Position numbers and translations under genes: made by a program. From Acidobacteriota bacterium (GTDB taxonomy: Bacteria > Acidobacteriota > UBA6911 > RPQK01 > JAJDTT01): a stretch of DNA of 54,842 bases. The notes below the pieces were generated by a model that saw nothing but the letters and a program-made list of their open reading frames with translations, searched no databases and was not told where the DNA came from. Below are positions 37,372-53,800 of this stretch, in pieces; position 1 is the first letter of the stretch; each line of letters opens with the position of its first letter. The DNA is taken from assembly GCA_047514575.1 (NCBI GenBank), contig JAKZYH010000197.1:1-54842 (forward strand). Direction: 5' to 3'.

Positions 37372-39039
37372 CTAGTCCCCCGTCTTATCTGCTGTGACCG
37401 ACAGCCAGACCCTGAAGCTGGTCCCCTGTCCCAACTGGCTCTCCACCTCGATTCGCCCCTGATGTCTCTCGATGACCTGGTGGACGATGGATAGTCCCAG
37501 TCCGGTGCCGACGCCGACGCCTTTGGTCGTGAATCCAGCGTCGAAGATCTTCCCTAGATCCTCCTTGGGTATCCCCTTTCCCGTATCCCGCACCTCAACC
37601 AGGATCTCATCCTGGTGGGAAACGGTCTTGATAAAGATGTCACCTTCTCCTTCTATCGCTTGTGCTGCATTCATCAGAAGGTTCATGAAGGCCTGGTTCA
37701 GTTGTTTGGGATAGCAATGGACGAGTGGCAGGTCCCCGTAGTCCTTGTGGGTCAGAATGGCATTGCTCAACTGCCGCTCGAGCATAGACAGAGTACGGTC
37801 GAGACACTCATGTAGATCGACGCGACCGAACTCTGCCTCGTCCAAACGGGCGAATCTGCGAAGATCGGTCACGATCGTCCCGGCTCGCTCCACGGCTTCG
37901 ATGCTGAAGCCGGCCAGCTTTTCAAGGTGTTGAAGGATGCGGTTTGACTCACTTTCGGCGGCAATGACTTGCTCTCCCAGCGAGTCCTTCAATTTGACGA
38001 CAGCTCGCTGCGAAAGCTGGATGTTGCCCTTCAAAGCCCCCAGCGGCGTATTGAGTTCGTGCGCCACTCCGGCGACGAGCTGTCCCATTGCCGCCATGTT
38101 CGCGGAATGCACTAATTGTGCCTGGGTTTCCTGAAGCTTTTTGTAGGCGTCCTGCAGTTCGTGGTTGCGCCCTTCTAGATTACGGAAGTCCAGAAATCGA
38201 GCATAAGCGAGGGAAATCGCGTCGGCATAGACCTCCAGGGTCTTTAGTGTCTGTGGCGGCAGGTCCTTCTTAGCGAAGCTTTGCAGGCTCAGGCGGCCAT
38301 AGGAGAAGGGAACTACGACCCATGAGGTGGGCACTCTTACATCTTCGATTCCTGCTAGACCCCAGGATCGTCTCAGAAATTCTCGATGCCGATCCCACTC
38401 GTCGGCAGAGCCTTCTGCTGTCAAGATTCGGGGTTCTGGACCTAGTTCTGTGGACTCGTCCAGCTGGCACTGGCTGGAATAGACGTTCACGCCGGGAAGG
38501 AGGTCACGGATAGAGGGCGCTACTCCGTATTGCTCCTCCATCCATCCGGTCGTGACGGCATAGGTTTCGCACTGGGTTCGGTCCTGGTCGAAGATCTCGA
38601 TAGCACAGTAATCCGCGGACAGCCCTACATCGTGGAGTCCCTCCCACATGACCCCAGCAACCTTGAGAAGGTCTTCCGTACGACGCATGCCCTGGACCTC
38701 GGCTCGCACTCGCTCCACGATGAGTTGGCCGGTCAAGGCGAGATCGTGTTCGTCGGTCACCAGACGGCGCAGCTTCACGTCACCGGTGACCGTGGTCTGG
38801 CATGCCAGTCGGGTCTCCGGTTGGTAGTGGAACTGGTGGGCTACCGTGTCCTCTTTGGGATTCCTTTGGTTGCAGTGCTCCAGACCTTCGAGAATCAATA
38901 CGCGGCAGGTCGTACAACGCGTTCGCCCAAAGCACACGTGCGCGTGGGGAATCCCAGCCTGCAGCGAGGCCTGAAGAATCGTCTTCCCCTCACGGACCTC
39001 TATGGCTTTGTCATCAGGTAGATAGTGGAGTTTCGCCAC
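37372..39039 (-). CDS. soluble histidine kinase with N-terminal 2Fe-2S ferredoxin-like domain
   Basis: N-terminus KLHYLPDDKAIEVREGKTILQASLQAGIPHAHVCFGRTRCTTCRV...RLACQT (C-x6-C-x2-C...C). An uncharacterised region of about 190 aa follows. H-box VAGVAHELNTPLG, N/G boxes NLLMNAAQA, DTGKGI, GTGLGLSI. No TM segments. Confidence 0.85.
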   Translation of the reverse strand: MAKLHYLPDDKAIEVREGKTILQASLQAGIPHAHVCFGRTRCTTCRVLILEGLEHCNQRNPKEDTVAHQFHYQPETRLACQTTVTGDVKLRRLVTDEHDLALTGQLIVERVRAEVQGMRRTEDLLKVAGVMWEGLHDVGLSADYCAIEIFDQDRTQCETYAVTTGWMEEQYGVAPSIRDLLPGVNVYSSQCQLDESTELGPEPRILTAEGSADEWDRHREFLRRSWGLAGIEDVRVPTSWVVVPFSYGRLSLQSFAKKDLPPQTLKTLEVYADAISLAYARFLDFRNLEGRNHELQDAYKKLQETQAQLVHSANMAAMGQLVAGVAHELNTPLGALKGNIQLSQRAVVKLKDSLGEQVIAAESESNRILQHLEKLAGFSIEAVERAGTIVTDLRRFARLDEAEFGRVDLHECLDRTLSMLERQLSNAILTHKDYGDLPLVHCYPKQLNQAFMNLLMNAAQAIEGEGDIFIKTVSHQDEILVEVRDTGKGIPKEDLGKIFDAGFTTKGVGVGTGLGLSIVHQVIERHQGRIEVESQLGQGTSFRVWLSVTADKTGD

Positions 39040-39257: not shown

Positions 39258-40253
39258 CTATATTGCTTCAACCCGACCGGTCTGACAGGCCCGGCGGACC
39301 GAGTCCAGAATGGACATGTTTTCTAGACCGCTTTCGATTCTGGGGTCGCGATCGCCCCGGCAGGCGGCCACGAAGGCATCGACTTCTACGGCGTATTGGT
39401 CGGTCGGAGACACGGTGTGCTGCCTTTCCCCTTCCTCTGTCGAGACCAGAACCCTATTTCTCCGGCTGCGCTTGGGCACATAGGCCATCGGTAGGTGAAT
39501 GACACCAAGATCCCCGTATACTGAGTAGGTTTGCTCTCTCTGTAGGTGGGTTCCGCAGGTGATGGCGGCGACTCGGTCGTCGGGGAAATTGAGGGTGAAG
39601 TGGCAGAATTCGTCGGTGCCACTTTCCGAACCGAGACTCCAGTGTCCGCTGCAGGAGGCGGGCTCTCCTGACAACACGTAGCGAGCGCTATCGATTCCGT
39701 AGCAGCCGACGTCGTAGAGTCCGCCGCCTCCGGTCTCGGGCTTCATCCGGATGTTGCTTGGATCTTCCAGATAGTAGTGGAAGTGGGCCTCGAATAGGTG
39801 CACCCTTCCAATCGTGCCGGACGCTATCAGTTCCTTGACCAGCGAGTGTTGGGGATGGAAGCGGTACATGAAGCCCTCCATCAGCACCCGTCCCGCGGAT
39901 TGGGCTGCCGCGTTCATCTCTTTCGTCTCATCCAGATTCATGGCCAGGGGTTTGTCGCAGAGAACGTGCTTTCCGCAAGCCAGAGCCTTCAGTGTCCACT
40001 CTTTGTGGAGATGATTGGGGAGGCCAATGTAGACGCCGTCAACGGCCGAATCGTCGAGGACTTGCTGGTAGCTGGGATAAGCTCGCTCGGCGGCGTGCCA
40101 GAGCCGCGCAGCCTTGTCGGGGGAACTAGTTCCCAGCGCATAGAGTTCGGCGGTCTCAGCTCTCCTGATCGCAGGGATCATAGCCTTGGTCGAGATTTTC
40201 CCGATACCGATAATCGCCATCCGAAACACGGCCGACTCCTCTCCGTTATCCAA
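39258..40253 (-). CDS. Gfo/Idh/MocA-family oxidoreductase
   Basis: N-terminal Rossmann segment MAIIGIGKIS..AIPAI and the EKP-like block CDKPLA. 331 aa, a typical length. Confidence 0.8.
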   Translation of the reverse strand: MDNGEESAVFRMAIIGIGKISTKAMIPAIRRAETAELYALGTSSPDKAARLWHAAERAYPSYQQVLDDSAVDGVYIGLPNHLHKEWTLKALACGKHVLCDKPLAMNLDETKEMNAAAQSAGRVLMEGFMYRFHPQHSLVKELIASGTIGRVHLFEAHFHYYLEDPSNIRMKPETGGGGLYDVGCYGIDSARYVLSGEPASCSGHWSLGSESGTDEFCHFTLNFPDDRVAAITCGTHLQREQTYSVYGDLGVIHLPMAYVPKRSRRNRVLVSTEEGERQHTVSPTDQYAVEVDAFVAACRGDRDPRIESGLENMSILDSVRRACQTGRVEAI

Positions 40254-40425: not shown

Positions 40426-41067
40426 TCAACGAGCCGCCGTCTCGCCGCCTGACCCAACCAAGGTTGAAATGGAAACCGAGTAGGATCGATCGTCGCTGGA
40501 GCCGGCTACAATGGGCACCGCGAACTCAAACTCCGTCTCAACGAGAGTCGGCATGGAAGAACCTCGGCTCAGGTCTTGCGACCACTGGGTGGCAGCCAGC
40601 TCCAGGCGGAAGCCCTTGCTGGTATTGTTGAGCTCTCCCTGGGCAACGGGCAGAGAACCGATCCCATCCTCAGAGGAAACCTGAAAGCTCCAGCGATTGG
40701 TTCCAGAGCGAACCAGGGACTGCATCACGAATCGCAGTTGCCCATGCTCAGTCGTCTCGACTCTGATCCGGCCCAGAACGCTATTGTGAGAGAGAGCCGA
40801 AGGTATCAAGCTCTGGCTCTTCCCCAGGATGCTGAGACGATAGGGAGGCGCTGATTCGGGAGCCAGATGGAACTGCAATCTGAGGATGGAGCTCTCGCTC
40901 GTAGGCTGGGCAAGGATGCTCACCGCCACGCGCCGGCTGCCGGTTTGTGCAGCGTTGGTCCTTGAGGTGCTACACGATATCCACAGCAGAACCGTCACCG
41001 CCATGATGCCGGATCGAATAATCTTGACTCTGCGCGATCTGGATTCGCTGCTCCCTGCGATTTTCAT
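40426..41067 (-). CDS. cassette 1 small protein (213 aa), probable lipoprotein, paralog of 44899-45432
   Basis: Signal peptide ending LLWIS-C (lipobox-compatible). ..VAQGELNNTSKGFRLELAATQWSQDL...ETEFEFAVP aligns with small protein 2. Start overlaps the upstream stop (ATGA). Confidence 0.7.
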   Translation of the reverse strand: MKIAGSSESRSRRVKIIRSGIMAVTVLLWISCSTSRTNAAQTGSRRVAVSILAQPTSESSILRLQFHLAPESAPPYRLSILGKSQSLIPSALSHNSVLGRIRVETTEHGQLRFVMQSLVRSGTNRWSFQVSSEDGIGSLPVAQGELNNTSKGFRLELAATQWSQDLSRGSSMPTLVETEFEFAVPIVAGSSDDRSYSVSISTLVGSGGETAAR

Positions 41068-41945
41068 GGAGGAGCTTCTTTCACATTGATTCTGATCGCC
41101 ACTTCCACCACGGAGAACAAGGGATCGTTGCTTGAGATGGTCAAACTCCCGAATTTCAGTCCGACCTGCTTGGGATCGAAACTGATCACAACAGTCTTCG
41201 TGCCGCTGGGGGGTATGCTCACCGAACCAGGGGCGGCCATAAAGTCCTCAGGAGTGAGAGTGGCATCGAGAGTTTTCTTTCCCCGGTTGGTCAGGACGAT
41301 ATTCTCTGACACCACAGGTGAGCCGACAACTGCGTCGGGGAAAGCGATGCTTGGCCTCGAGATGGCAAGACGTGGCTCCTCGCTCGGCCTCACCTCCGGA
41401 AATTGGCCGAGTTGCTCGGGTTTGAGAACGATCTTCACCTTGGCTAAGCCCTTTACGAAAGTGACTCCGGGGGGCAACTCACTATCACTGTCCAAGCCTA
41501 CCAGGACCCCTGCAGTTGTTAGACCACCGGCCACGATGTGGATGGAGTTGCGACTGGCCGCGAGGCTCTCGGCACTATTGGCCTGGATGGTAAGGGTTGT
41601 CTGAATCTCATCTATTGTGTCTTCATCCAAGCTGGCCGTGATCGACTTGTTGACGACTTTTATTTCCCACCCGGTTTGATCGACGATTTCGGCGAGCTTC
41701 ATAGCAGTCAACTTCCCCTCAGTCACAACAGCAGTAACACTGACCGTCCTGATTTCGCCAGGAGCGAGGATATCCGGGACGGGTTTCACGACATCCGCGA
41801 CGATCGTGGCAACTGTGGGATCGCTGGCCCCATCTTCATCTTGCCTCTTGTTGCAGTCGCCAGCACTCGCGACGATGGCAATCCAACACAGTGTGAGAAT
41901 AAATCGCCAGTTCCTCTGGAATCCCGCTGTGCGAACTGCCTTCAT
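41064..41945 (-). CDS. cassette 1 choice-of-anchor-D domain protein (293 aa)
   Basis: The C-terminal ..IAFPDAVVGSPVSENIVLTNRGKKTLDATL...VSIPPSGTKTVVISFDPKQVGLKFGSLTISSNDP.. fits the choice-of-anchor-D/ASH-like pattern. N-terminal signal anchor. ATGA overlaps on both sides. Confidence 0.75.
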   Translation of the reverse strand: MKAVRTAGFQRNWRFILTLCWIAIVASAGDCNKRQDEDGASDPTVATIVADVVKPVPDILAPGEIRTVSVTAVVTEGKLTAMKLAEIVDQTGWEIKVVNKSITASLDEDTIDEIQTTLTIQANSAESLAASRNSIHIVAGGLTTAGVLVGLDSDSELPPGVTFVKGLAKVKIVLKPEQLGQFPEVRPSEEPRLAISRPSIAFPDAVVGSPVVSENIVLTNRGKKTLDATLTPEDFMAAPGSVSIPPSGTKTVVISFDPKQVGLKFGSLTISSNDPLFSVVEVAIRINVKEAPP

Positions 41946-44242
41946 TGTGTCTCCACCTGGGATGGAAACTGGACTACGATTTCCGAGTCACGGAACGAAC
42001 TCCATTGAGCAGAACGAACCTCAGACGTCGTGTTGACCATGGTTCCGGAGACTGCCGGAGGTACGTATATCTGCATCTCGAACTCGGTTGAGAGCGTGCG
42101 ATCCAACAGCGAGAAGCGGGCGGAGGGCAGCTCGAAAACGATCCCTCCATCGCCGTTCTGGGAGAGAAAAAGGGTGGCTTCTGAAGGGTTTTCCAGTGTC
42201 CTCTTGTAATCGAAGAAATGACGCTTCGCGCCCTCCTCCTCTTGCCCTCCATAGACCAGAAGGTACTTCGTCAAGAAGCCGTTCGAATTGATCACCAGGG
42301 AGGCTGTCCCGGCCACTTGGTTGATGGTCAGTGGATCGGTCCGGATCTGGCCCTGGTCCAGAGTCACCTTCAGGGAAGTCAATGCAACATCTTGTGGGAC
42401 TCGCAGGACAACATCGCCCCGACTCTGTTTGAGTAGGATCACGGGGGCCACCGCCTGGCCCGCCGAGAACTCGGGAAAGAAGATCCCGGCCTCCGGTCTG
42501 AAGAGAACGAAGAAGTGGTGATCATTGCTGACGGGCCCTCCGCTTTCCACTCTCACCGGCCCTGTGACTGCGTCCTCTGGAACCCGTACCATCAGCTCGC
42601 TGGAACCTGCACTCTCGACCTGGCCTTCAACCCGGCCTCCGTCGACATTCTGGAAGGTGACCAGGTTGGCCGCGAGATCGGGATCGAAGCCGGACCCCCT
42701 GAGCTCTATTAGCTCTCCCACCGCTCCCTGCACGGGAAGGATCCGCTCCAGCCGGGGAGCTCCTGCTGGAGGTGCCACTGTTGTGAAGGTCCGACTCTCC
42801 TCCTTGGTCAGGGGCAGGTCAGAATCCTTCAGGACCGTCACCGAGGTGGATGTCGCCACCAAATCGAACGACTCGCCCACCGTACTTGGAAGCTGGAGTG
42901 CTCCGTCGCCCAGAATGATCTCTTGATCGAAGGTAGTTTCAACCACCGCCTCCTGGGGCGGCTGCGGGAAGTCCTCCAGCGCGAGCACGGTGGAGCCTGC
43001 CTCCAGCGTGCCCCTCGCCTGGAGGATACTGCCGGCAGCGTCGTCCTGGCCCGGGATGGCGACGTCCTGTGTGCTCCGTCCTTCGAACGCCACCTTGGTG
43101 GGTGAGAGGACCTCGGTGATGCTCAGCGCTTGGAAATCTCTGGCTTTATTGACAGCGATCAACCTTCCCACACCCATCAGCTGGCCCTCCGACAGTTGGG
43201 CGAAGTCGGGTTCGATCTTGTCCATTCGGACCTCGGTCCTGACGAGGCGCATGTCGAGGACATTGTGGTGCACAACAATGGTGAATCCCGGCTTGGAGCC
43301 GGCCAGAAGATTGTGAGGCAGGACGTTGAAGTTGGGCCGGAAGCGCGGTTCTATGACCAAGATAACGGAGTCCTTGGTGGCCGGTGGATCGCCACTATCT
43401 TCGACTTTCACTGTGGCGGCTCCGGGTACCAGCCCGGTCAAATCGATCACAGTACCTTGCAGGCTAGCCTGGAGAATTGCCTGGTCTTCCTCGGCCAGCG
43501 GCTTCAGTTTGTAGGGTGGTGTTCCTCCTCCAACGACCAGGGTTTCCTTGCCACTACCGGGAGGCAGCAAGAGCGTGGAATCCTCGGGGAAGAGTTCCAG
43601 TGGAACCAAGCCGGCCGTGAAATCCTTCACCTGGAATCCGACGCCGTTGCTCATCAAACCCAGGACCCCCACCGTCACGCGATAGACCTGGGAGCCTAGA
43701 TCTTCCGGAACCCTCACGACAAGGGAGTTGCTGGTGGCACCGATGACCTCTCCCGCTTGCGTCTGGTCCAAACGGGAAAACAAAACCAGGTTTCGCGCCA
43801 GCACCGGGCTGAAATGCTCGCCGACGAGGGTCAAGAGGCTGCCTCGAGGTGCCCTACCAGGAACGATGAATCGAATCTCGGGTGTCCCCTCCGGTACCAC
43901 CGGATCGCATTGAGCCAGTTGGGAGAATCCAAGATTGTTTCGCAGCAGCTCGACTATGTCGAGAACATCTACTTTGCCATCCTGGTTGACGTCCGCGTTG
44001 GTCAGAGCCTCTCCACCCAGAGTTTTCTTCTGCAGGATGTGGGCCTGGATCAGGACCTGGTCGCGGACGTCCCTCAGGCCATCCAGGTTAGCATCTCCAG
44101 TGCAAAGAGTTGAGGACGCTGAGGCAACTGAACCCCGCGGAGCCACCGGCTCCCTGAGCAGTTTAGGGAGACACAAGAGCGCAACCGCACTCAGCATCAG
44201 GAATGAGAAAAAGCGACGGCGATGGCTCTCAGAGACTTTCAT
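41942..44242 (-). CDS. cassette 1 large surface protein (766 aa): signal anchor, N-terminal dockerin-like module, two IPT/TIG domains, Ig-like region
   Basis: GDANLDGLRDVRD...ADVNQDGKVDVLD is a duplicated DxNxDGxxxxxD Ca-loop pair (dockerin type I pattern). IPT-like PEIRFIVPGRAPRGSLLTLVGEHF and PRLERILPVQGAVGELIELRGSGF. Collinear paralog of 46378-48708. Confidence 0.8.
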   Translation of the reverse strand: MKVSESHRRRFFSFLMLSAVALLCLPKLLREPVAPRGSVASASSTLCTGDANLDGLRDVRDQVLIQAHILQKKTLGGEALTNADVNQDGKVDVLDIVELLRNNLGFSQLAQCDPVVPEGTPEIRFIVPGRAPRGSLLTLVGEHFSPVLARNLVLFSRLDQTQAGEVIGATSNSLVVRVPEDLGSQVYRVTVGVLGLMSNGVGFQVKDFTAGLVPLELFPEDSTLLLPPGSGKETLVVGGGTPPYKLKPLAEEDQAILQASLQGTVIDLTGLVPGAATVKVEDSGDPPATKDSVILVIEPRFRPNFNVLPHNLLAGSKPGFTIVVHHNVLDMRLVRTEVRMDKIEPDFAQLSEGQLMGVGRLIAVNKARDFQALSITEVLSPTKVAFEGRSTQDVAIPGQDDAAGSILQARGTLEAGSTVLALEDFPQPPQEAVVETTFDQEIILGDGALQLPSTVGESFDLVATSTSVTVLKDSDLPLTKEESRTFTTVAPPAGAPRLERILPVQGAVGELIELRGSGFDPDLAANLVTFQNVDGGRVEGQVESAGSSELMVRVPEDAVTGPVRVESGGPVSNDHHFFVLFRPEAGIFFPEFSAGQAVAPVILLKQSRGDVVLRVPQDVALTSLKVTLDQGQIRTDPLTINQVAGTASLVINSNGFLTKYLLVYGGQEEEGAKRHFFDYKRTLENPSEATLFLSQNGDGGIVFELPSARFSLLDRTLSTEFEMQIYVPPAVSGTMVNTTSEVRSAQWSSFRDSEIVVQFPSQVETQ

Positions 44243-44381
44243 CGTACCGTTCGTTCCGACAGAGCAGGGCTTGCACGTCGAAATCTACTCCCTGCAACAA
44301 GTCGGGGTATCTCCGACCGCCAGGGTGGCGAAGTGGTTCCAACGCTTAGAGATCGTAAAGCCAAGATTGTGCTGGTGATCC

Positions 44382-44846
44382 TCAAGGAACCTCGACTACG
44401 ACGTACTCTCGTTCCAGGGATACGGGGTAGGTTTCGGCGATCAAGGGAGCGGCAGTCACGCCCTCTATCGCCTCATCCGATTCAGCACAGCCCGAGGTAT
44501 CCTGGATAGCGCCTCCCGCCTCGAGCTTGACCGGGTAGCTGCGGGTGCGCACGCGTTCCGGATCGACCCACGACCTTCCGGTTTTAACATCAAATTCCCA
44601 TCCGTGCCAGGGACAGCGCAGAATCTCACCCTTTCGAGTGTAGTGATATTCGCCAGGAACTCTCGCAGTCGGAAAACCCGAGAGTCGACCGGAACACAAC
44701 GGCCCCCCCTGATGGGGGCAGCGGTTGCGCAGGGCGAAGAATTCCCCGTCAATATTGAACACTCCGATTGAGCGTCCCTCGATCTGGACGAGCTTCCGGG
44801 ATCCTGGAGGAATTGCCCGGATGGTTGAGACGACATGTCTGCTCAT
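44382..44846 (-). CDS. Rieske [2Fe-2S] domain protein
   Basis: CPHQGGPL...CPWHGWEF Rieske ligand motifs. Start is set at the internal ATG 44846 (the longer ORF overlaps the upstream gene). Confidence 0.85.
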   Translation of the reverse strand: MSRHVVSTIRAIPPGSRKLVQIEGRSIGVFNIDGEFFALRNRCPHQGGPLCSGRLSGFPTARVPGEYHYTRKGEILRCPWHGWEFDVKTGRSWVDPERVRTRSYPVKLEAGGAIQDTSGCAESDEAIEGVTAAPLIAETYPVSLEREYVVVEVP

Positions 44847-44898
44847 CGGAATTCCCCCAGCACCTAGTGCTGATTCCCCTTGGTTTTCCCCCGGTGGA

Positions 44899-45432
44899 TC
44901 ATCGAGGAGAGACGATGGCCTCGGACCAGCTACCATCGGCTGGGTCAAGGGGCCAGGTGGAGAGAACGAAATTCAGCTCGCCGCTGCTGGGTCTCCGGAC
45001 TGGGACCTGAAAGACGAACTCAGCGCTTGTCCTTTGATGGAGACTCTGGTTTCGAGCAAGGTCCAGCAGCCACTCGGTGCCCACAACATCCAGAACGAAG
45101 CCCCCAACCGCGTTCTTGATCTCCCCGCGAGCAACTGGCACGTGGGAAAAGTTGGGATCGTCTGGGAAGATGGCCAGACTGCAGCGGTTGTCGCCGAGTC
45201 TGGACTCAATCTGCGCGGTCAGACCAAGTGTGCGTCCATCTGCAGTATGCAGACTGATTCGCGCCAGACGCGATCCTCTTGACAGACCCGCCAACTCTAC
45301 ATACTGGTTTTCGCCTCTGATCCTTAGCTGGCGAGGAAGCGAATAATCGGGATTGCGATGAATCCGGAAAGCCACAGGGCCTCCCCTCTTCTCAAGATCC
45401 TGGGCATGGGTAACCGATGCCGCAAGCGTCAA
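44899..45432 (-). CDS. cassette 2 small-protein module (177 aa as called; no own signal peptide; in frame with the corrected upstream gene)
   Basis: ..VARGEIKNAVGGFVLDVVGTEWLLDL...SAEFVFQVP aligns with 40426-41067. The only start is a TTG. The same frame stays open upstream to the G8 tract at 45659-45666. Confidence 0.55.
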   Translation of the reverse strand: MTLAASVTHAQDLEKRGGPVAFRIHRNPDYSLPRQLRIRGENQYVELAGLSRGSRLARISLHTADGRTLGLTAQIESRLGDNRCSLAIFPDDPNFSHVPVARGEIKNAVGGFVLDVVGTEWLLDLARNQSLHQRTSAEFVFQVPVRRPSSGELNFVLSTWPLDPADGSWSEAIVSPR

Positions 45433-45517
45433 CCCTTGTCCCGAACGCCTTCCCGCTCCTGTCGCTGCCTCCGCGGCAGTGGATGTGCCTCGCAGGTTGA
45501 TAGTCCAAGGTGAATTT

Positions 45518-46381
45518 CTATCGTTGCTCTTGATGGTCAGTAAAGCACTCTTGGGTCCGGCGGGAGCCCGAGGGAAGAATTTCCATCGATAAGTAAAGGA
45601 CCACCCAGGAGGGATCGTCAGAGGGGTCCCGCCACCTCGGCGAGTGAAGTCGAGAAAAGGGGGGGGTCTCGTTGGACGTAGCCTGTATCTCAGTCATCAC
45701 CACGTCCTCATTGCCGCGGTTCAGCAATTTGATGGACAGGCTCTTGGGAGGAAGGCCGATCACTCCGCTTCCGAAGTCGGCCGTGGCGCTGGGTGACACC
45801 AGCAGAAACGGTCCTTGTGCTGTGAACGCTTGCAGATCAGGGGAGTCGGCATTCGCCAAAATTCTGACCGTTGCTTGGCCTCCGATAATCCGAGTCACGT
45901 TTTCCACTTGCTCAGCTCTTATGGACGGGAATGCATCCACGAACGCGTCGTAGAAGAGACGGGTGTTAATGACTTGCGTGGCATAGGGGATGGGGAAGCC
46001 GAACAGGCGCAGCTGCTCTATGCGGGTGAAGTCCACAGCCTTCGAGGTAAACCCAAGGATGGTCTGCTCACTTTCTCGGTTTGTGAAAGAGGCAGTCTCT
46101 ATCCCGGTTGCATCCCACAAGGGTGTCCACAAGAAGGGGGGACAAGGAAGCGCTCCACAGGTGGCTGAGACATTGAACGTGTCACTAGCCTCAGGATCCA
46201 CCCCTATGATGGAGGGATCCATCGTCACTCTCATCGTAATGATCTCGGGAGACGCTTGTCCATCCTCGGCGTTGCGGCAGCAATCTTCTTCCTGTGGTGC
46301 CAGGTTGAACAAACCCACCAGCACCAACAGCACCAGCAGCTTGATCTTCTTTGACAGGACCGAGGAATCACCGACCTTCAT
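45518..46381 (-). pseudogene. cassette 2 choice-of-anchor-D protein, frameshifted at a C8 (plus-strand G8) tract
   Basis: After ..KLLNRGNEDVVMTEIQATSNETPP the called frame gives an unrelated tail. Removing one C restores FLDFTRRGGGTPLTIPPGWSFTYRWKFFPRAPAGPKSALLTIKSNDRNSPWTINLRG, the expected domain end. Start ATG 46381 overlaps the upstream stop (ATGA). Confidence 0.75.
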
Positions 46382-48708
46382 GGACCTGCAAACTCCCTTT
46401 CCACCAGCACGACCATCTCCGAACCCTTGAAGAAAGTCCATTGCTCTGACCGTACCTCGACCGTCATCTTGATCGGACCATCCATTGTCTCCGGCAGCGA
46501 ATAGATCTTCTTTTCGAAACTAATCGTCAAGGAGCTGCCCAACACAGACAGGCTTTCTGCCTTCATATCAAAGATTATGCCCGGGCCCTCCGGATCCTCG
46601 GAAACAAACAAGGTGGTCACCGGAGACCTATCGACTTCTTCTTTGACTTCGAAGAAGTGTCTTCCCGGTCCGCTTTCCGTCTCCTCTTGACCCCCATAAA
46701 ACAGCTGCCACATGGTTTGAAAGCCACTGTTCCTCACCTGGGACGCCGTTCCGGCGGACACATCGATTTCGAGTTCGGACGTATCCAGACTTCCGTCGTC
46801 GACAAAGACCATGAGGGAGTCGAACCCGACCTCACCCGGCTCCTGGGCCAAAAAGATGATCGGAGCAAGAGACTCCTGGGCTTGCTGAGTCCGAAGAGTC
46901 AGTCCATCCTCCTGAAGCTCCCCCTCAATCGGCTCTACGTCGAGCTCACCCGCCGAAAAGAAGATGCCGGTGTCGGGCTGGAACAAGACCCAGAACTGGT
47001 AATCGTTGCTTTGCTTCCCGTCGATCGCAACGCTGACCGGTCCAGTGATTGCGCCTTCCGGTACATAGACTAGTAGCTCCTCTGCTGAAGCAGTCTCCAC
47101 GGGAGCTTCAACCCTGGTGTTATTGGTCCCTCTGAATGTCACCTGATTGTTCTCACCTACAGGATCGAATCCTGAGCCTGAGATCCTCACCTTGTGACCG
47201 ATTTCACCCTGAAACGGAAGCAGACGCTCAACGCGTGGTGCACCGGAGGCGGGTGCGACGGTCGTGAAGGTCCTGGTGACGGTTTTGGTGAGGGGGACTT
47301 TCCGCCCTTCCAATACCGTGGTTGAGGTGAAAGTGGCCACGACATCGAAGGTCTCGCCAACAGCATCGGGGAGACCGATCACTTGATCATTCAGGATTGT
47401 CTCGCTCACGAAACTCCCCCTGACGACACCCTCTTCTGGTGGTTCCGGGATTTGTCCTAGAGTCATCACCGCAGAACCCTTGGCGAGAGTGCCCTGAGCG
47501 CCCAAGCCTACTCGGCTGTCTATCGAGCGTAGAACATCGAAACTCAGATTTTCGGCGGAATTGATACTGGTCACCTGCAGGTACTGGAAATCCGGGGTCC
47601 CAGAAACTACCTGCTTCCCGATACCAAGAATCCCTCCTTCTTCCAGGCTGGAGAAGTCGGTCGAGACCTTTTCGATGCGAAACTCTGAATGCAGCAAGCG
47701 CATGTGGTTACTGAATTGGTTCACGCTGATCGTAAAACCGGGGACCGAGCCTGCCAGCAAAGTATGCGGCGTGATGTTGAAGTTAGGACTGAAAAGCGGT
47801 TCTCTGACGTTCACGGTGGCCGTGTCCGTGGCAGGTGGTTCTGCACTGTCTTCCAGATCCAGCCTGACTCTGCCTGCCTTCAGGCCTCTTACTTCGATGA
47901 CGTTGCCGTCCAGTTCCGCCACCGCAACTTCTTGATCCTGCTCGGAGAGGGGGGTCAACTTGTAGGGTGGAGTGCCTCCACCGATCACATAGACGTCTTC
48001 GCCGCTGCCCGGGGGCAAGAGCAAAGTGGCACTGGATGGAAGCACATCAAGCCGAGGGGCTGAGGAAAGAACCCGGTAACCTACGCTGTTGCTTTGATCC
48101 TCGTCGACGGTGACGCTCACCGCGTAAAGCCTACTCGTCAGATCTTCCGGGATAACACCCTGGATGACCGATTCGGAGGCGCTGCTGACCTGCGCCTGGA
48201 TCATCGCCTCTGGGCGATAAAAGAGAACCAGGTTTTCACCCGGGTCGGTGCTGAATCCACGACCGAGCAGTGTGAAATTTGTCCCCTGTGGTCCCGAGAC
48301 GGGTGAAATGATCCGGATCTGGGGAGTACCAGGGGGCATGCTGATGACACAACTGGCGAGTTCCGATTGCCCTAGATTGTGGAGGAGCAGGCCCACAATG
48401 TCGTGGACATTGACGGAGGTGTCCTGGTTGACATCGGCGTTTCTCAGGGCGTCTCCGCTCAAAGCCCTGTCTCCCAGGATGTGGGCCTGGACGAGAACCT
48501 GATCCCGTACGTCTCGCTCTCTATCCAGGTTGGCATCGCCGGGACAAGCCGGAATCACCTGCAGAACGGGTGCGCCTGAAGCCGAGGGTTGACCTGAGTT
48601 GGTGCCTCGCTCCGAGAACAGGCGCACCAGGGAAAAGGCCAACAGCATCAGCAGAGAGAGCTCCAATGTACCTACCAGCAACCGACGTATGGATGGATAG
48701 CTGCTCAT
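46378..48708 (-). CDS. cassette 2 large surface protein (776 aa): signal anchor, degenerate N-terminal dockerin-like module, two IPT/TIG domains
   Basis: GDANLDRERDVRD...ADVNQDTSVNVHD. Collinear similarity to 41942-44242 along the full length (e.g. TRTFTTVAPASGAPRVERLLPFQGEIGHKVRISGSGFDP vs SRTFTTVAPPAGAPRLERILPVQGAVGELIELRGSGFDP). Confidence 0.8.
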   Translation of the reverse strand: MSSYPSIRRLLVGTLELSLLMLLAFSLVRLFSERGTNSGQPSASGAPVLQVIPACPGDANLDRERDVRDQVLVQAHILGDRALSGDALRNADVNQDTSVNVHDIVGLLLHNLGQSELASCVISMPPGTPQIRIISPVSGPQGTNFTLLGRGFSTDPGENLVLFYRPEAMIQAQVSSASESVIQGVIPEDLTSRLYAVSVTVDEDQSNSVGYRVLSSAPRLDVLPSSATLLLPPGSGEDVYVIGGGTPPYKLTPLSEQDQEVAVAELDGNVIEVRGLKAGRVRLDLEDSAEPPATDTATVNVREPLFSPNFNITPHTLLAGSVPGFTISVNQFSNHMRLLHSEFRIEKVSTDFSSLEEGGILGIGKQVVSGTPDFQYLQVTSINSAENLSFDVLRSIDSRVGLGAQGTLAKGSAVMTLGQIPEPPEEGVVRGSFVSETILNDQVIGLPDAVGETFDVVATFTSTTVLEGRKVPLTKTVTRTFTTVAPASGAPRVERLLPFQGEIGHKVRISGSGFDPVGENNQVTFRGTNNTRVEAPVETASAEELLVYVPEGAITGPVSVAIDGKQSNDYQFWVLFQPDTGIFFSAGELDVEPIEGELQEDGLTLRTQQAQESLAPIIFLAQEPGEVGFDSLMVFVDDGSLDTSELEIDVSAGTASQVRNSGFQTMWQLFYGGQEETESGPGRHFFEVKEEVDRSPVTTLFVSEDPEGPGIIFDMKAESLSVLGSSLTISFEKKIYSLPETMDGPIKMTVEVRSEQWTFFKGSEMVVLVEREFAGP

Positions 48709-49535
48709 TTGGCCTCGACCCTTTCAGGTGGGAGCCAATAGTGCGGCCGCCATAAGAACCAGAGACAGGTACCCACGACGATCAGTGAGATCAGCTGGGC
48801 GAAGCTCAGGGGACCAAAGGCTACACCCTGCGCGTCAGCTCGGAGAAACTCGAGGGCGAAGCGGAATACGGCATATGCCGAAACGGCCTTCAAGAAGATC
48901 GTTCCCGATTGGTGTGGCTGCCGAAGCCAGTGGTACGCCAGCACCAGGACGATGAGGCCAAATGCCGCCTCGTAGAGTTGGGTGGGGTGGACTGGAAGCG
49001 ATAAAGGGGCGCTGGAATCAATCAATCCTGCCTGCAGGTGTTGGTCGTAGGCGTGATAAGGACCAGGAAAACGGACCCCCCAGGGCAGCCCGGTGGTTTC
49101 TCCCCAATTGCAGCCTGCCGAAAAACAGCCAAGGCGGCCCAATGCGGAGCCCAGCGCCAGGGCGGGTACCAGCGCATCTAGGAATCGGGTAATCGAAACC
49201 CGCTGCGACCACAGGTAGAGGCTGGGTGCCAGGACGACCCCCAGCAGCCCTCCGTAGAAGGCCAGCCCACCCAGTCTGGCATCCAGGACATCCCACAGAT
49301 CCGAGAAATGATGAGGGTATTGTAGGAAATAGACGAGCCGCGCTCCGGGAATCACGAACAATACGGCATAGAAGACGGCCTGATAGGAATGTGCCTCCGA
49401 AAAGCCGTGACGTCGGCACTGACGAAGAGTGATCAACGCCCCGAGTATCAGGGCGAGGGTCAACATGAAGGTAAAATCAGGTACCAGGAAACTGAGGGTA
49501 TTCAGATTCAGGGTCTCGATGATTCGGCTTCGCAT
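48705..49535 (-). CDS. lgt: prolipoprotein diacylglyceryl transferase family protein (Lgt paralog or sole lgt)
   Basis: GGLAFYGGLLG, GRLGCFSAGCNWG, VHPTQLYE and LEFLRAD blocks match Lgt-family conserved regions. Multi-TM. The stop overlaps the next gene's start (ATGA). Confidence 0.8.
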   Translation of the reverse strand: MRSRIIETLNLNTLSFLVPDFTFMLTLALILGALITLRQCRRHGFSEAHSYQAVFYAVLFVIPGARLVYFLQYPHHFSDLWDVLDARLGGLAFYGGLLGVVLAPSLYLWSQRVSITRFLDALVPALALGSALGRLGCFSAGCNWGETTGLPWGVRFPGPYHAYDQHLQAGLIDSSAPLSLPVHPTQLYEAAFGLIVLVLAYHWLRQPHQSGTIFLKAVSAYAVFRFALEFLRADAQGVAFGPLSFAQLISLIVVGTCLWFLWRPHYWLPPERVEAK

Positions 49536-49553
49536 CTACGCTTCAGCGGTTCA

Positions 49554-50726
49554 TCATATGAGGATGATGACGGGGAATGTTGTCAACAGACTGCCCTGCA
49601 GCTTCAACGCTACGGCCGAGATGGGAGCGGACGAAGTGATTTCAATTGAGCCTTGAAATTCGGCCACTCCAGAGAGCTGATCGAACAGCTCGGTAGCGAA
49701 CTGTGGGGAATGCTCTCCGGGCTCAAGGGTGATCATCTCCTGCTCTCGCTCCGTTCCCGCCTCGTCCCGACGGGTGAGCGTGATCTGGATCGTCTGAGAA
49801 GAAAAATTAACGAAGGCAATTCCGGTGTTGGTACCTCCCTGGTCGAACAGGACTGGGATGGAGAATCGGGCGCCAACCGGTGAGGCCCCAACGCCGGCCT
49901 CGCTGGTGACATTCCCGGCCCCGTCCCGCTGCGTAAAGATCAAGGTGCCGCCCAACGGACCAGTGGCATCCAGCAAAGCGTACCCGGCCGAAATATCTCC
50001 GCTTCCGTCCGTTCTCAGGAAAATAGATCCACCAGCTGGGACGGTGAACTCGAAACTCGAATCACTGGTGCCATCTGTCAGAGTCACCACAAACGGTGTT
50101 CCGTCGGACTTGAAAAGACTCACTCTGCCATTTGAGGCCGCCGCGGTGCGATTGACGAAAATGAGTGTCACTACGAAGCTACCGCCCTCGAAGGTGCCGT
50201 TGGCAACCTGCGAGAAAATCAACCGATTCTCCCCCTCGATAGGAGTGTTTCCCGAGTCGCTGATGGTCACGACTCCCTCGTTGGAAACCATCGGGACGGC
50301 GCTTCCGTTCGTATCTGAGGCCTGAATCTCTGAAGGCTCCAGGGTGGTCGAGGAGCCGAGAGCCGCATCTGCTGCCACCTCAAAAACGATGCTGACCACC
50401 GAGCCGGGTCCGGGCGTCATCGATGCGAGAGAGCCCGAGAAGATCACAACCGTGATTTTTCCGTCCTCCAGGTTGGACCCCACGCTGTGATCGGTCAGGG
50501 CGCTGCCTGCCAGCACCGAACCCTCGGCAGGGATGGAGAGGAAAGTCGTATTGAAGGTCAGCGCAAACTGGATCGGCGTGACGTCCTCTCCGTCGCTGAT
50601 TGTCACGGGCACAATCACCTTGGTCCCGGGAGCCGCATTGACGTCCGGAACGCTGAGCGTAATCTGTGCCAGCGCCAACTCTGTCGTCAAGACCAGCAGC
50701 GCTATGAAGGAAAGCTTCCTCATCAT
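49554..50726 (-). CDS. secreted cohesin-domain protein with C-terminal beta-sandwich domain of unknown function
   Basis: Signal peptide ..ELALA-Q. ITLSVPDVNAAPGTKVIVPVTISDGEDVTPIQFALTFNTTFLSI...GSVVSIVFEVAADAALGSSTTL fits the cohesin fold pattern. First gene of the operon. Confidence 0.7.
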   Translation of the reverse strand: MMRKLSFIALLVLTTELALAQITLSVPDVNAAPGTKVIVPVTISDGEDVTPIQFALTFNTTFLSIPAEGSVLAGSALTDHSVGSNLEDGKITVVIFSGSLASMTPGPGSVVSIVFEVAADAALGSSTTLEPSEIQASDTNGSAVPMVSNEGVVTISDSGNTPIEGENRLIFSQVANGTFEGGSFVVTLIFVNRTAAASNGRVSLFKSDGTPFVVTLTDGTSDSSFEFTVPAGGSIFLRTDGSGDISAGYALLDATGPLGGTLIFTQRDGAGNVTSEAGVGASPVGARFSIPVLFDQGGTNTGIAFVNFSSQTIQITLTRRDEAGTEREQEMITLEPGEHSPQFATELFDQLSGVAEFQGSIEITSSAPISAVALKLQGSLLTTFPVIILI

Positions 50727-50801: not shown

Positions 50802-50837
50802 GCATAGAATTCTATGCTCTTGAGAAGACACGATCAA
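50802..50837 (-). promoter_or_regulatory. perfect 16-nt palindrome GCATAGAATTCTATGC overlapping a candidate promoter TTGATC-17-TAGAAT for the cohesin operon
   Basis: Palindrome at 50802-50817. Minus-strand -35 at comp. 50832-50837 and -10 at comp. 50809-50814. It lies in the 163-nt divergent intergenic region. Confidence 0.4.
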
Positions 50838-50889: not shown

Positions 50890-53800
50890 ATGCACAGCTC
50901 AAGCGTGAACTCAAGCATGCTGAAGGGTCTCAGGTGGCGCTGCATCGGACCGCCCCGGGGAGGCCGCGTCGTCGCGGTAGCCGGCCATCCCTCCGATCCA
51001 ATGGTTTTCTACTTCGGAGCCTGCGCAGGAGGCGTCTGGAAGACCACGGACGGCGGAACCTACTGGGAGAATGTCTCTGATGGGTTTTTCAATTCGTCTG
51101 CCATCGGGGCTCTCGCCGTGGCCGAGTCGGATCCCAACGTAGTCTATGCAGGAACGGGTGAGACCACGATTCGAACCGATGTTTCCTACGGCGACGGGGT
51201 CTACAAGTCCATGGACGGAGGCCAGACCTGGCGACATGTGGGATTGGCCGATACTCGCCACATTGGCGAGATTCGCATCCATCCAAGGAACCCCGATCTG
51301 GTGTACGTAGCGGCACTGGGCCACGCCTTCGGACCCAATCAGGATCGCGGTGTCTTTCGGTCTCGAGACGGCGGCGAGAATTGGGAAAAGGTCCTCTTCC
51401 GCAGCGAGAAGGCAGGTGCCGTGGATCTGGCGATGGATCCTCACAATCCCAGCATTCTCTACGCCGCTATCTGGGAGGCGTATCGGAACTTCTGGACCCT
51501 CTCCAGCGGCGGTCCCGACAGCAGTCTCTATAGATCTACAAATGGGGGTGAAACCTGGTCGGAGATCAGTGGCCAACCCGGTCTGCCGGTCGGCCTCAAG
51601 GGAAAGATGGGAATTGCCGTCTCGCCGGCTCGTTCCGGACGTGTCTGGGCGATCATCGAAGCGGAAGAAGCGGGCGTTTATCGCTCTGACGATGGAGGCG
51701 AGAACTGGGAGCTGATGACGAACAACCGGGATCTGCTCAATCGTCCCTGGTACTACTGTCACATCTTTGCCGATCCGCAGCACGCAGACACGGTCTATGT
51801 CACCAACTTGAACATGTGGAAGTCTACCGATGGAGGGCGTAACTACACCCAGATTACGACGCCCCACGGCGACAACCATGACCTCTGGATCGATCCTCGG
51901 AACCCACAGCGGATGATCGAGGGAAATGACGGGGGGGCCTGCGTCTCGTTCAACGGAGGGGAGACCTGGTCCACCATCTATAACCAGCTCACCGCGCAGT
52001 TCTACCGCGTCGACGTCGACAACCGTTTCCCCTACCGGGTCTACGCGACTCAGCAGGACAACTCAAGCATCAGCGTTCCCAGTGCCACCGAATATGGAGG
52101 GATTCCCTGGACCGAGTGCTATGCCGTCGGCACGGGTGAAAGTGGGCATATTGCCGTACACCCATCCGATCCAGACATCGCTTACATTGGCGCCGTGGGG
52201 AGCTCACCCGGGGGAGGCGGCGCCCTACAGCGCTACCATCATCGGACTCGGCAGATTCGATTGGTGACCGTGTGGCCCGAAACCGATCAAGGTTGGGCTT
52301 CGATCGACCACAAATATCGCTTCAACTGGACCTTCCCGATCGCCTTTTCTCCCCACGATCCGCAGATCCTCTACGCCGCCGGAAATCGCCTTTTCCGAAC
52401 TCTGGACGAAGGGACCAACTGGGAGGCGATCAGCCCGGACCTCACCCGGAAGGATGTGTCTAAGCTGGGAATATCTGGTGGGCCCGTTACCAGCGATTCC
52501 AGTGGCGCCGAGCAATATGCCACCATTGTTGCGTTTGCGGAATCGCCTCTGGAAAAGGGTCTGCTGTGGGCTGGAACCGATGACGGCCTGGTACAGGTTT
52601 CCCGAGACGAGGGGCAACACTGGCACGACGTAACACCACCTGAACTCCCTGAATGGTCCTGGGTCGGCTCGATTGAAGCTTCGCCCCATGTTGCTGGAGC
52701 CGCATTTGTCGCCGCTACGCGATACAAGCTGGACGATTATGAGGCATATCTCTACCAGACAGTCGACTACGGTGAGACCTGGGAGACTCGCAGTGAAGGA
52801 TTCCCCAAGGGTGAGATCAGTCGAGTAATCCGCCAAGATCCGGTGCAACCAGGATTGTTGTACGTGGGAACCGAAACCGGGATCTGTCTCTCCCTCGACG
52901 AAGGCGATAGTTGGTCTCGTCTCGAATCCAACCTGCCCGTCGTCCCGGTCTACGACTTGAAAATCAAGGACGATGATCTGGTGGCTGCGACCCATGGCCG
53001 TTCCTTCTGGATCCTGGACGACTTGACGCCTCTTCGCCAGCTCTCGCAAGACGTGGCGGACGCTTCGGCCCACCTGTTCGCACCCCGCCCCTCCTACCGC
53101 CGCTGGCTGCAATGGGGTGTCGGGATTCATCGAGGCCCGGGCAAGTGCTATATGCTGGCTCTAGGAGCTGCGGGAGCATTCTATGAGACCAAATCAGCCG
53201 GGGGCGAGTCTGGACTGATAGGGCTCGATGTGGGCGAGAACCCGCCGCACGGAGTTATCGTCTATTACGCTCTCAGTGAGGTTCCCGATGAACTCGTGAC
53301 CCTCTCCTTCCTGGACCTCGAGGGAGCTTTGATCAAGGCAATAAATAGCCAGGACGCACGATCGAAGGACCACCCTGAATCCCAGCTGTCGGACGATAAG
53401 GAAGGCGGACCCTCCCTGCCGGTTGAGAAAGGTTTAAACCGTTTCGTCTGGGATATGCGTTACCCCAATGCTGAGAAGGTGCCGGGAGATCTCATCACCG
53501 AGAAGATGGAGACCGGGCCACTGGCTCCACCCGGAAGCTACCAGGTGCAGCTTCAGGTTGCTGGTCTAACCTCGAGCCGCTCCTTCGAGATCCTCAAGGA
53601 TCCCAGGGTATCCGCCACCCAGGAGGACCTCGACGCTCAGTTCGCTCTCTGGAGCCAGATTCGGGACAAACTCTCGGATACCCACCGGCACATCAACCAA
53701 CTCAGGAAGATCACCGCCCAGTTGAAGCAATGGGAGAACCGTCTGCAGGATTCCCCAGACTCCGAGCCCTCCCAGTCAGTGGCGAAGGCTGCACGGGACC

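Follow-up and report, generated by a model that had tools for sequence, protein, structure and literature searches.

We report that a minus-strand operon of an Acidobacteriota bacterium rather probably encodes an envelope complex built on a cohesin and its dockerins: specific to the Acidobacteriota, non-cellulosomal, located on the outer side of the inner membrane, with its own Lgt for atypical lipoproteins. The operon lies in a stretch of 54,842 nucleotides (contig JAKZYH010000197.1 of assembly GCA_047514575.1), hereafter the window, and its genes are numbered g1 to g9 from the upstream end. They comprise a secreted cohesin protein (g1), an Lgt paralogue (g2) and two cassettes, each consisting of a large dockerin protein (g3, g7), a choice-of-anchor-D middle protein (g4, g8) and a small protein (g5, g9), with a Rieske-type gene (g6) between the cassettes (Table 1). 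To our knowledge, cohesin–dockerin pairs have been described almost exclusively as the elements that hold extracellular enzyme complexes of Firmicutes together.

By sequence and by predicted fold, the N-terminal domain of g1 is a genuine cohesin, as a first-pass annotation of the window had proposed from the letters alone. Behind a Sec signal with an ALA/Q cleavage site, it matches PF00963 over profile positions 1–139 of 139 (53 bits against a gathering score of 24.1, E 5e-14). The AlphaFold2 (AF2) model of g1 (predicted local distance difference test (pLDDT) 91.4, predicted template-modelling score (pTM) 0.82) superposes on cellulosomal and Archaeoglobus cohesins, Foldseek ranking 5nrm_A first (E 3.7e-12, template-modelling score (TMt) 0.86, root-mean-square deviation 1.9 Å) and the Archaeoglobus cohesin 2xdh second (E 7e-12, TMt 0.86), with 6kgf and 1aoh among further cohesins and a TMt range of 0.8–0.86. 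The family of g1, denoted cohesin-390, comprises about 57 clusters, and its members with a source name, as well as its genome-collection loci, are all Acidobacteriota. The rest of g1 (residues 161–390), modelled as a double β-sandwich, has no Pfam or PDB relative in sequence and profile searches. At E ≤ 1e-3 this domain has matches in 3,548 representative clusters, and at E ≤ 1e-10 in 1,559; it often occurs in two copies inside exported proteins of 400–2000 amino acids and carries the motifs FPQxANG, NTGIAFxN and TTFPV, in that order; a Pfam scan of nine other proteins that contain it found only generic exported modules (PPC, SBBP, CarboxypepD_reg and cohesin). It represents a large extracellular domain family of more than 3,500 representative clusters without annotation.

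The large proteins g3 and g7 share one architecture, in which the dockerin stands directly after the signal anchor and is followed by IPT and Ig-like domains, an arrangement already read from the sequence and re-found here. A long hydrophobic helix, near which no AxA cleavage site is present, is followed by a linker of 20–25 residues, a cysteine, the dockerin, a second cysteine and an IPT domain; after this come an Ig-like domain with the sequence GGGTPPYKL, a large β-sandwich region, a second IPT domain and a C-terminal β-sandwich. The dockerin consists of two canonical 12-residue F-hand loops of the form D-x-N-x-D-G-x-x-D-x-x-D, roughly 34 residues apart (DANLDRERDVRD and DVNQDTSVNVHD in g3, DANLDGLRDVRD and DVNQDGKVDVLD in g7), with helices predicted behind the loops at residues 68–77 and 101–112 at low pLDDT. 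The g7 dockerin scores above the Dockerin_1 cutoff (PF00404, 30.4 bits against 22.9) and that of g3 just below it (21.7 bits; its TIG match reaches 52.6 bits). The family profile of the large proteins (A1) matches many solved type I dockerins, among them 8x39, 4fl4, 2ccl, 1ohz and 3ul4 at E values of 1e-7 to 5e-4, and also the Amy16/Amy10 dockerins of the Ruminococcus bromii amylosome. On these matches, we read the DxNxDG pairs as real dockerins rather than generic repeats, in agreement with the first-pass annotation. Within the family, Cys120 (g3 numbering) is invariant and Cys55, located one residue before the first calcium loop in g3, is nearly so (at least 90%); the pair brackets the dockerin and most simply suggests a disulfide clasp. 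Over their full length g3 and g7 are 44% identical, within the 40–45% that had been estimated by eye. The large-protein family is small (18 clusters), and in its distant orthologues of about 940 amino acids a choice-of-anchor-D domain and an extra IPT domain are inserted right after the dockerin.

Proteins identical to those of the window occur on long-read metagenome contigs of the European Nucleotide Archive (ENA) of up to 4.85 Mb (ERZ28763718, ctg125598), and the named relatives are all metagenome-assembled genomes (MAGs) of Acidobacteriota. The neighbourhood, whose conservation in relatives the first-pass annotation had put forward as a check, is indeed conserved, distant relatives included: the cohesin-390 gene directly precedes a dockerin-bearing gene at about 22 loci (the window and, numbering the related loci with L, L010, L013–15, L017, L019, L020, L022–26, L029–32, L036, L037, L039, L040 and L043), and wherever the record names an organism it is an Acidobacteriota. 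L025 and L026 keep the gene order of the window (cohesin–Lgt–large–middle(–small)), followed by a second, cohesin-headed cassette; L022 (complete genome CP070717.1) and L023 are two-gene loci. The invariant core is the cohesin gene with the dockerin gene, and the three-gene cassette and the Lgt are elaborations of it. The dockerin partner is usually a large Ig/IPT protein, and sometimes a protease or an amidohydrolase: in L023 the dockerin is N-terminal and borne by an HExxH metalloprotease of the MXAN_6640 type, in L036 and L037 it is C-terminal on an amidohydrolase-like protein, and in L040 and L043 it is C-terminal on LRR/S8-subtilase-like proteins. Because the pairing persists across such different cargo, which would otherwise be hard to explain, the cohesin and the neighbouring dockerin appear to interact; this adjacency at about 22 loci and the fusion in L027 described below suggest a possible calcium-dependent cohesin–dockerin binding within the cluster. 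In a separate case, L045:10001-10539 (Ga0310121_10000471), a cohesin gene 84% identical to g1 breaks off near residue 180, and the genes behind it are unrelated, with no other cluster gene within 10 kb downstream; this shortened gene is either a deletion or the product of a chimeric contig.

Two natural fusions bear on where the complex would sit. At L027:2839-7441 (ENA ERZ26167216, ctg466237), the gene of an Lgt with 46% identity to g2 is translationally coupled to that of a 1015-residue protein. This protein has a transmembrane segment, carries the g1 C-terminal domain twice (E 1e-24 and 1e-22), continues in a body weakly similar to the large protein and contains neither a cohesin nor a dockerin; a 243-residue middle-like protein with the sequence DDRDC follows. 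By sequence, L027 reads as a covalent version of the assembly that would be joined non-covalently in the window, with the same membrane-proximal order. At L017:5094-8030 (JBHGBF010000246.1, Acidobacteriota SBS.BIN.3), a single open reading frame (ORF) of 978 codons fuses a complete Lgt, through an Arg-rich stretch and a hydrophobic segment, to a cohesin protein, whose part of the fusion also carries IPT (‘choice-of-anchor Z’) and choice-of-anchor-D domains; the topology fits the positive-inside rule. The C terminus of Lgt is cytoplasmic in the Escherichia coli topology, and one extra transmembrane segment would thus place the L017 cohesin in the periplasm. Both fusions suggest a tie between the system and Lgt, and a location on the outer side of the inner membrane. 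The first-pass annotation had spoken of a surface assembly; the order of anchor and dockerin, the Sec-secreted cohesin and the Lgt–transmembrane–cohesin fusion of L017 indicate the periplasmic side of this membrane instead.

The identification of g2 as an Lgt homologue stands: it scores 134.6 bits against the TIGR00544 equivalog cutoff of 118.9 and 175.9 bits against PF01790. Its description as embedded in the operon falls short, as g2 belongs to a clade of its own and tracks an atypical lipobox. The residues reported to be essential or important in E. coli Lgt are Y26, R143, N146, E151, G154, Y235, R239 and E243; against the E. coli sequence, g2 keeps the equivalents of R143, G154, H196, Y235, R239, E243 and R246, and has Cys for both N146 and E151 and Tyr for H103, as do the further homologues. 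Replacement of N146 and E151 by cysteine was considered as a sign of changed g2 activity and rejected, as it is common to all 104 further homologues retrieved, some of which are named Lgt by their sources. Among the 120 Lgt matches listed, g2 and about 14 clusters (including P0110–P0123) form a distinct, cluster-specific clade, with 48–58% identity and 270–334 bits, the next matches reaching at most 202 bits; its members sit on contigs that also bear cohesin genes. The positions specific to this clade (R4, Y73, N143, Q165, F192 and F224) include no clear charge-complementary change, except an Asn where others carry Cys or Asp. The lgt gene has no fixed place: in the window, L013, L025, L026 and L039 it stands after the cohesin gene, in L010 and L017 after the middle gene; L008/9 retain just a remnant (codons 1–77), and L014 has no lgt at the locus. 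Lgt is essential in diderms, and this remnant and this absence therefore suggest that the locus lgt is an additional copy beside another one.

The middle proteins link this Lgt clade to a possible set of substrates. Apart from the orphan cassettes named below, each of them begins with a signal peptide that a cysteine follows. Many loci show a textbook lipobox (L018–21, L024, L025a, L031, L032/34 and L042), including LSGC, TKAC, PVAC, MAAC, ASGC, TGGC and LVGC, and the choice-of-anchor-D proteins are for this reason read as a lipoprotein family. No canonical box ([LVI][ASTVI][GAS]C) is present in g4 or g8, in contrast to these orthologues. The N terminus of g4 reads ...LFNLAPQEEDCC..., with NLAPQEEDCC in the cysteine region, and the g8 signal peptide ends in VASAGDC, both with Asp at position −1. 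Such an Asp(−1) is found in both middle proteins of the window (QEEDCC and SAGDC), in both cassettes of L013, and in L010, L017, L025b, L026 and L027; it is present in nine of the ten middle proteins whose locus has an Lgt and in none of the six where Lgt is demonstrably absent. This co-occurrence makes g2 the candidate enzyme for lipidation of g4 and g8 at their atypical lipobox. In two orphan cassettes, L006 and L046, which lack both cohesin and Lgt, this cysteine has been lost, and they show a signal-peptidase-I-type NLA/Q site at the position of NLAP in the window. The small proteins g5 and g9 were also considered as Lgt substrates and rejected: g9 fits a PROSITE-type lipobox (LLWISC), but its cysteine is not conserved, since L026 lacks it and L013 and L014 have it in a non-canonical form, and AxA/Q sites occur in several family members.

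The assignment of choice-of-anchor-D domains in the first-pass annotation is probable for g8, which scores slightly below the NF012200 cutoff (43.4 bits against 45) but above that of HYDIN/VesB Ig (29.2 bits against 25.5); g4 as called has no family match and resembles g8 only at E = 0.028. The g4 frame breaks at a run of eight cytosines. With seven or ten, the frame stays open across an entire choice-of-anchor-D domain (26.7 bits, residues 187–289) that is 33% identical to that of g8 (E = 8e-5), and the other-frame sequence matches an intact 299-residue orthologue in L006. The repaired g4 continues without a stop into g5, giving an intact ORF of 494/495 amino acids, and g5 alone lacks a signal peptide, unlike its paralogue g9; the nine genes originally counted may thus be eight. 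The tract has eight cytosines in the window, L001, L002, L004 and L005, and nine in L003, neither of which is in frame. The assemblies L002 and L004, from the same organism, carry indel errors, as the cohesin gene is split there into ORFs of 114 and 288 amino acids (L002:7985-9155 and L004:355-1525). The break is most likely a homopolymer error of sequencing or assembly, and less likely a slipped-strand phase-variation switch in an envelope gene. With g5 and g9 32% identical (E = 4e-21), as well as the identities given above for g3/g7 and for the repaired g4/g8 domain, the first-pass observation that the three-gene cassette occurs twice is borne out.

Taken together, the data suggest the following model. 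The cohesin of g1 would dock on the Cys-bracketed, calcium-type dockerin of g3 or g7, and as this dockerin lies directly behind the N-terminal membrane anchor, the docking site would be membrane-proximal. The C-terminal domain of g1 would thereby be placed at the membrane-proximal base of a stalk of Ig domains standing on the outer (periplasmic) face of the cytoplasmic membrane. Each large protein would be paired with a choice-of-anchor-D lipoprotein (g4 or g8) and a small secreted β protein (g5 or g9), the two cassettes being old paralogues that share one cohesin gene in this genome. To the lipoproteins g2 would attach diacylglycerol at a lipobox that is doubly atypical, with Asp at −1 and the cysteine several residues past the hydrophobic core, and that a housekeeping Lgt would probably refuse. 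Judged by its content, the complex would here be structural or adhesive rather than enzymatic, and in distant relatives the same cohesin family would hold dockerin-tagged proteases or amidohydrolases. A further step, in which an Lgt paralogue dedicated to acidic(−1) lipoboxes, as barred from the general pathway, is brought to its clients by the cohesin–dockerin contact, is tentative and in our view rather doubtful; if true, it would amount to cohesin-guided post-translational lipidation, a role never described for Lgt or for cohesin–dockerin modules.

Several observations weigh against this model. The dockerin segment of the large protein has a pLDDT below 50 in AF2 (residues 27–126), and when the large protein was used in a fold search, the matches were all generic multi-Ig chains (contactin, complement C3 and α-2-macroglobulin) at a template-modelling score of about 0.1, with no functional clue. 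As the two-gene loci L022 and L023 demonstrate, the core can do without Lgt and without the middle and small proteins. The cysteines of g2 in place of N146 and E151, common to the further homologues, are not an adaptation of its clade. A second lgt from the same 4.85-Mb contig is not visible among the listed Lgt matches, and the Lgt–cohesin fusion was seen once, on a MAG contig, with no other among those matches. The association between Asp(−1) and Lgt has a Fisher’s test value of about 9e-4 for lineages that are not independent and with kinship uncorrected, and it has exceptions in L025a, with a canonical LSGC beside an Lgt, and L014, with AANC and no Lgt.

Among the alternatives, g2 could be the housekeeping lgt that happens to lie in the operon, with no special lipidation needed. 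It passes the Lgt equivalog cutoff with its catalytic arginines in place, and the missing second lgt just mentioned would follow; we nevertheless hold this to be unlikely, since the g2-clade Lgt recurs inside the cluster in distant lineages and at varied positions (L010, L017, L025, L026 and L039), is fused to the cohesin in L017, is reduced to a remnant in L008/9 and lost in L014 despite its essentiality in diderms, and tracks the Asp(−1) lipobox. Another reading keeps a special role for the cluster Lgt and makes the large protein itself its target, with Cys55 diacylglycerylated and a cohesin at or near Lgt recruiting the dockerin, which would let a cysteine remote from the hydrophobic core of the signal come within reach of the enzyme. 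The near-invariance of Cys55 immediately ahead of the first calcium loop, the membrane-proximal dockerin and the L017 fusion, which would bring a bound dockerin to Lgt, all fit. Yet Cys55 is paired across the dockerin with the invariant Cys120, as expected of a disulfide clasp, and lies 20–30 residues past the hydrophobic segment, outside any lipobox context; both cysteines also occur with or without Lgt at the locus, for which Cys55 as a lipidation site was demoted to a minor, improbable rival.

It is about as improbable that adjacency reflects co-expression alone, the DxNxDG loops serving as calcium stabilisers and the cohesin binding something else. Non-cellulosomal cohesin-like and dockerin-like modules are, as far as we know, widespread and mostly untested, which together with the low-confidence dockerin model favours such caution; against it, the cohesin-390 gene adjoins a dockerin-bearing gene at almost every informative locus, whatever the cargo, and L027, which lacks both cohesin and dockerin, has the two halves joined in one covalent chain. 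Least probable of all, and by our estimate very improbable, is a cellulosome-like, polysaccharide-degrading complex with its enzymes encoded elsewhere and only the scaffolding at this locus. In its favour, both cohesin and dockerin are real, hydrolases would be docked by other members of the family, and a BNR/Sortilin-Vps10 β-propeller gene lies divergently next door. That gene, however, is linked to the cluster in close relatives only, each protein has a single cohesin with no multi-cohesin scaffoldin, the enzymes found as cargo are proteases and amidohydrolases rather than glycosidases, and none of the roughly 22 clusters examined contains a glycoside hydrolase (GH) or carbohydrate-binding module (CBM) domain. 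The membrane-proximal envelope complex with its own Lgt remains the reading we favour.

The operon ORFs are co-directional and span positions 50726 to 40426. All ORF coordinates of the first-pass annotation were recovered exactly, as were its four ATGA stop/start overlaps (48705-48708, 46378-46381, 41942-41945 and 41064-41067) and the 18-nt spacer between g1 and g2. Its view of the whole operon as translationally coupled holds for the four ATGA junctions and not for the wider gaps of 85 nt (g4–g5), about 52 nt (g5–g6) and 139 nt (g6–g7); coupling applies to only half of the junctions. The promoter scan is weak (6 sites observed against 3.1 expected), no internal terminator in the operon scan was convincing, and terminator and promoter counts were close to the shuffled expectation. 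For g6, the Rieske identity is secure (PF00355, 57 bits against a cutoff of 20.3, with the cluster ligand motifs CPH and CPWH), whereas its membership of the system is not: it has no signal peptide or other export signal in its sequence, occurs only in the close relatives L008/9, L013 and L014, always directly upstream of the g7-type gene, and is absent at L010, L017, L019, L020 and L022–L026. Lacking a signal peptide and confined to close relatives, g6 is probably a cytoplasmic, lineage-specific passenger.

Table 1 Features of the operon and its upstream region in the window
Feature	Position	Strand	Basis
Promoter-like site TTGATC-17-TAGAAT, sigma-70-like, in the divergent intergenic region upstream of g1	50809..50837	-	Consensus scan
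g1, secreted single-cohesin protein, 390 aa	49554..50726	-	Pfam, AF2, Foldseek
g1 cohesin domain, aa 22-155	50262-50663	-	PF00963
g1 double beta-sandwich domain, aa 161-390, unannotated	49557-50246	-	AF2 model
g2, Lgt paralogue, 276 aa	48705..49535	-	TIGR00544, PF01790
g3, cassette-1 large protein, 776 aa; dockerin at 48349-48546	46378..48708	-	Pfam, profile search
g4 as called, cassette-1 middle protein	45518-46381	-	ORF call
Poly-C tract breaking g4	45659..45666	-	C8 here
g4+g5 repaired, one 494-aa ORF: choice-of-anchor-D lipoprotein-like plus small domain	44899..46381	-	Frameshift repair
g5, cassette-1 small-protein domain	44899-45432	-	ORF call
g6, Rieske [2Fe-2S] ferredoxin-type protein, 154 aa from ATG	44382..44846	-	PF00355
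g7, cassette-2 large protein, 766 aa; dockerin at about 43907-44101	41942..44242	-	Dockerin_1; g3-like architecture
g8, choice-of-anchor-D / HYDIN-VesB Ig protein, 293 aa	41064..41945	-	Family searches
g9, cassette-2 small secreted protein, 213 aa, g5 paralogue	40426..41067	-	Sequence comparison

Outside the operon, the window holds ordinary chromosomal genes (lysine biosynthesis, PSCyt/DUF1501, two histidine kinases and BipA). In one histidine kinase (37372-39039, minus strand), the usual sensor domain is replaced by an N-terminal 2Fe-2S ferredoxin (Fer2) domain; the gene of this kinase and a GFO/IDH/MocA oxidoreductase gene (39258-40253) stay directly downstream of the cluster in the close relatives L008, L013 and L014. 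Divergent from g1 lies the gene of the Sortilin-Vps10/BNR β-propeller protein (1065 amino acids, 50890-54087, plus strand), which is linked to the cluster only among the close relatives L008, L013, L014, L028 and L045. In related loci, an IS66-family transposase gene always precedes a 286-residue PF14236 (DruA) gene, with several copies per genome (L008:1236-3724 and L008:12283-14771; L024:558-5720 and L024 from 20244; L046:13985-16392), and in L008/L009 one such pair is inserted between the g7-type and g8-type genes.

A literature search found no description of this cohesin–dockerin–Lgt envelope system, in keeping with the first-pass remark that the combination was not recognisable as a described one. 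Several features appear to be new: the phylum, with its diderm cells; an Ig/IPT protein whose dockerin lies N-terminally near the membrane, between two cysteines; a two-gene module that recurs with exchangeable cargo; and the dedicated Lgt clade that accompanies Asp(−1) lipoproteins. A whole family of two-gene cohesin/dockerin modules is present in a major, poorly cultured phylum of soil and sediment, probably placed at the diderm envelope and with cargo that is mostly non-enzymatic Ig-domain proteins. An Lgt paralogue tied to an acidic(−1) lipobox would bear on how lipoprotein substrate specificity diversifies and on the prediction of lipoproteins from genomes.

Comparison with known systems places the cluster close to several of them and apart from each. 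It does not appear to be a cellulosome, given that family searches found no GH or CBM domain in the operon proteins, as first noted, or in related clusters, and that no multi-cohesin scaffoldin is encoded. Like Lgt in general, g2 scores above the equivalog cutoff and has the catalytic Arg, Tyr and Glu residues, and some organisms, for example Streptomyces, possess two lgt genes; g2 differs from known Lgt enzymes in that its clade is small and restricted to these clusters, that it was once found fused to a cohesin and that it co-occurs with candidate substrates bearing Asp(−1). The domain of g8, repaired g4 and their orthologues resembles choice-of-anchor D (NF012200) and HYDIN-VesB-ASH Ig-like proteins; here, unlike the usual case, it is carried on a lipoprotein-type N terminus rather than paired with a C-terminal sorting signal, and its gene has a fixed operon position after the dockerin protein. 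The non-cellulosomal pairs of Archaeoglobus fulgidus (2xdh), Clostridium perfringens (GH84C/toxin; 2w1n and 2jh2) and Ruminococcus bromii (9qf8/9qf9) share a use beyond cellulose degradation. Those pairs serve to bring enzymes or toxins together on the outside of monoderm or archaeal cells, in contrast to the cluster, whose partners would be non-enzymatic, membrane-proximal and linked to lipoprotein maturation. With the anchoring scaffoldins (the SdbA/OlpA type of Clostridium thermocellum, a cohesin with an SLH cell-wall module) the cluster shares a cohesin joined to a second, non-catalytic module, a dockerin-tagged partner that would be held at the envelope, the cohesin fold (TMt 0.8–0.86) and the two F-hand loops. 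It differs from them in its diderm Acidobacteriota host, in a second module that is a double β-sandwich, with no SLH or sortase signal, in an N-terminal dockerin that is bracketed by two cysteines beside a membrane anchor, in cargo that is an Ig/IPT protein and not an enzyme, and in the presence of Lgt and lipoproteins. By analogy, the cluster would function as an anchoring scaffoldin reduced to its minimum, with one cargo.

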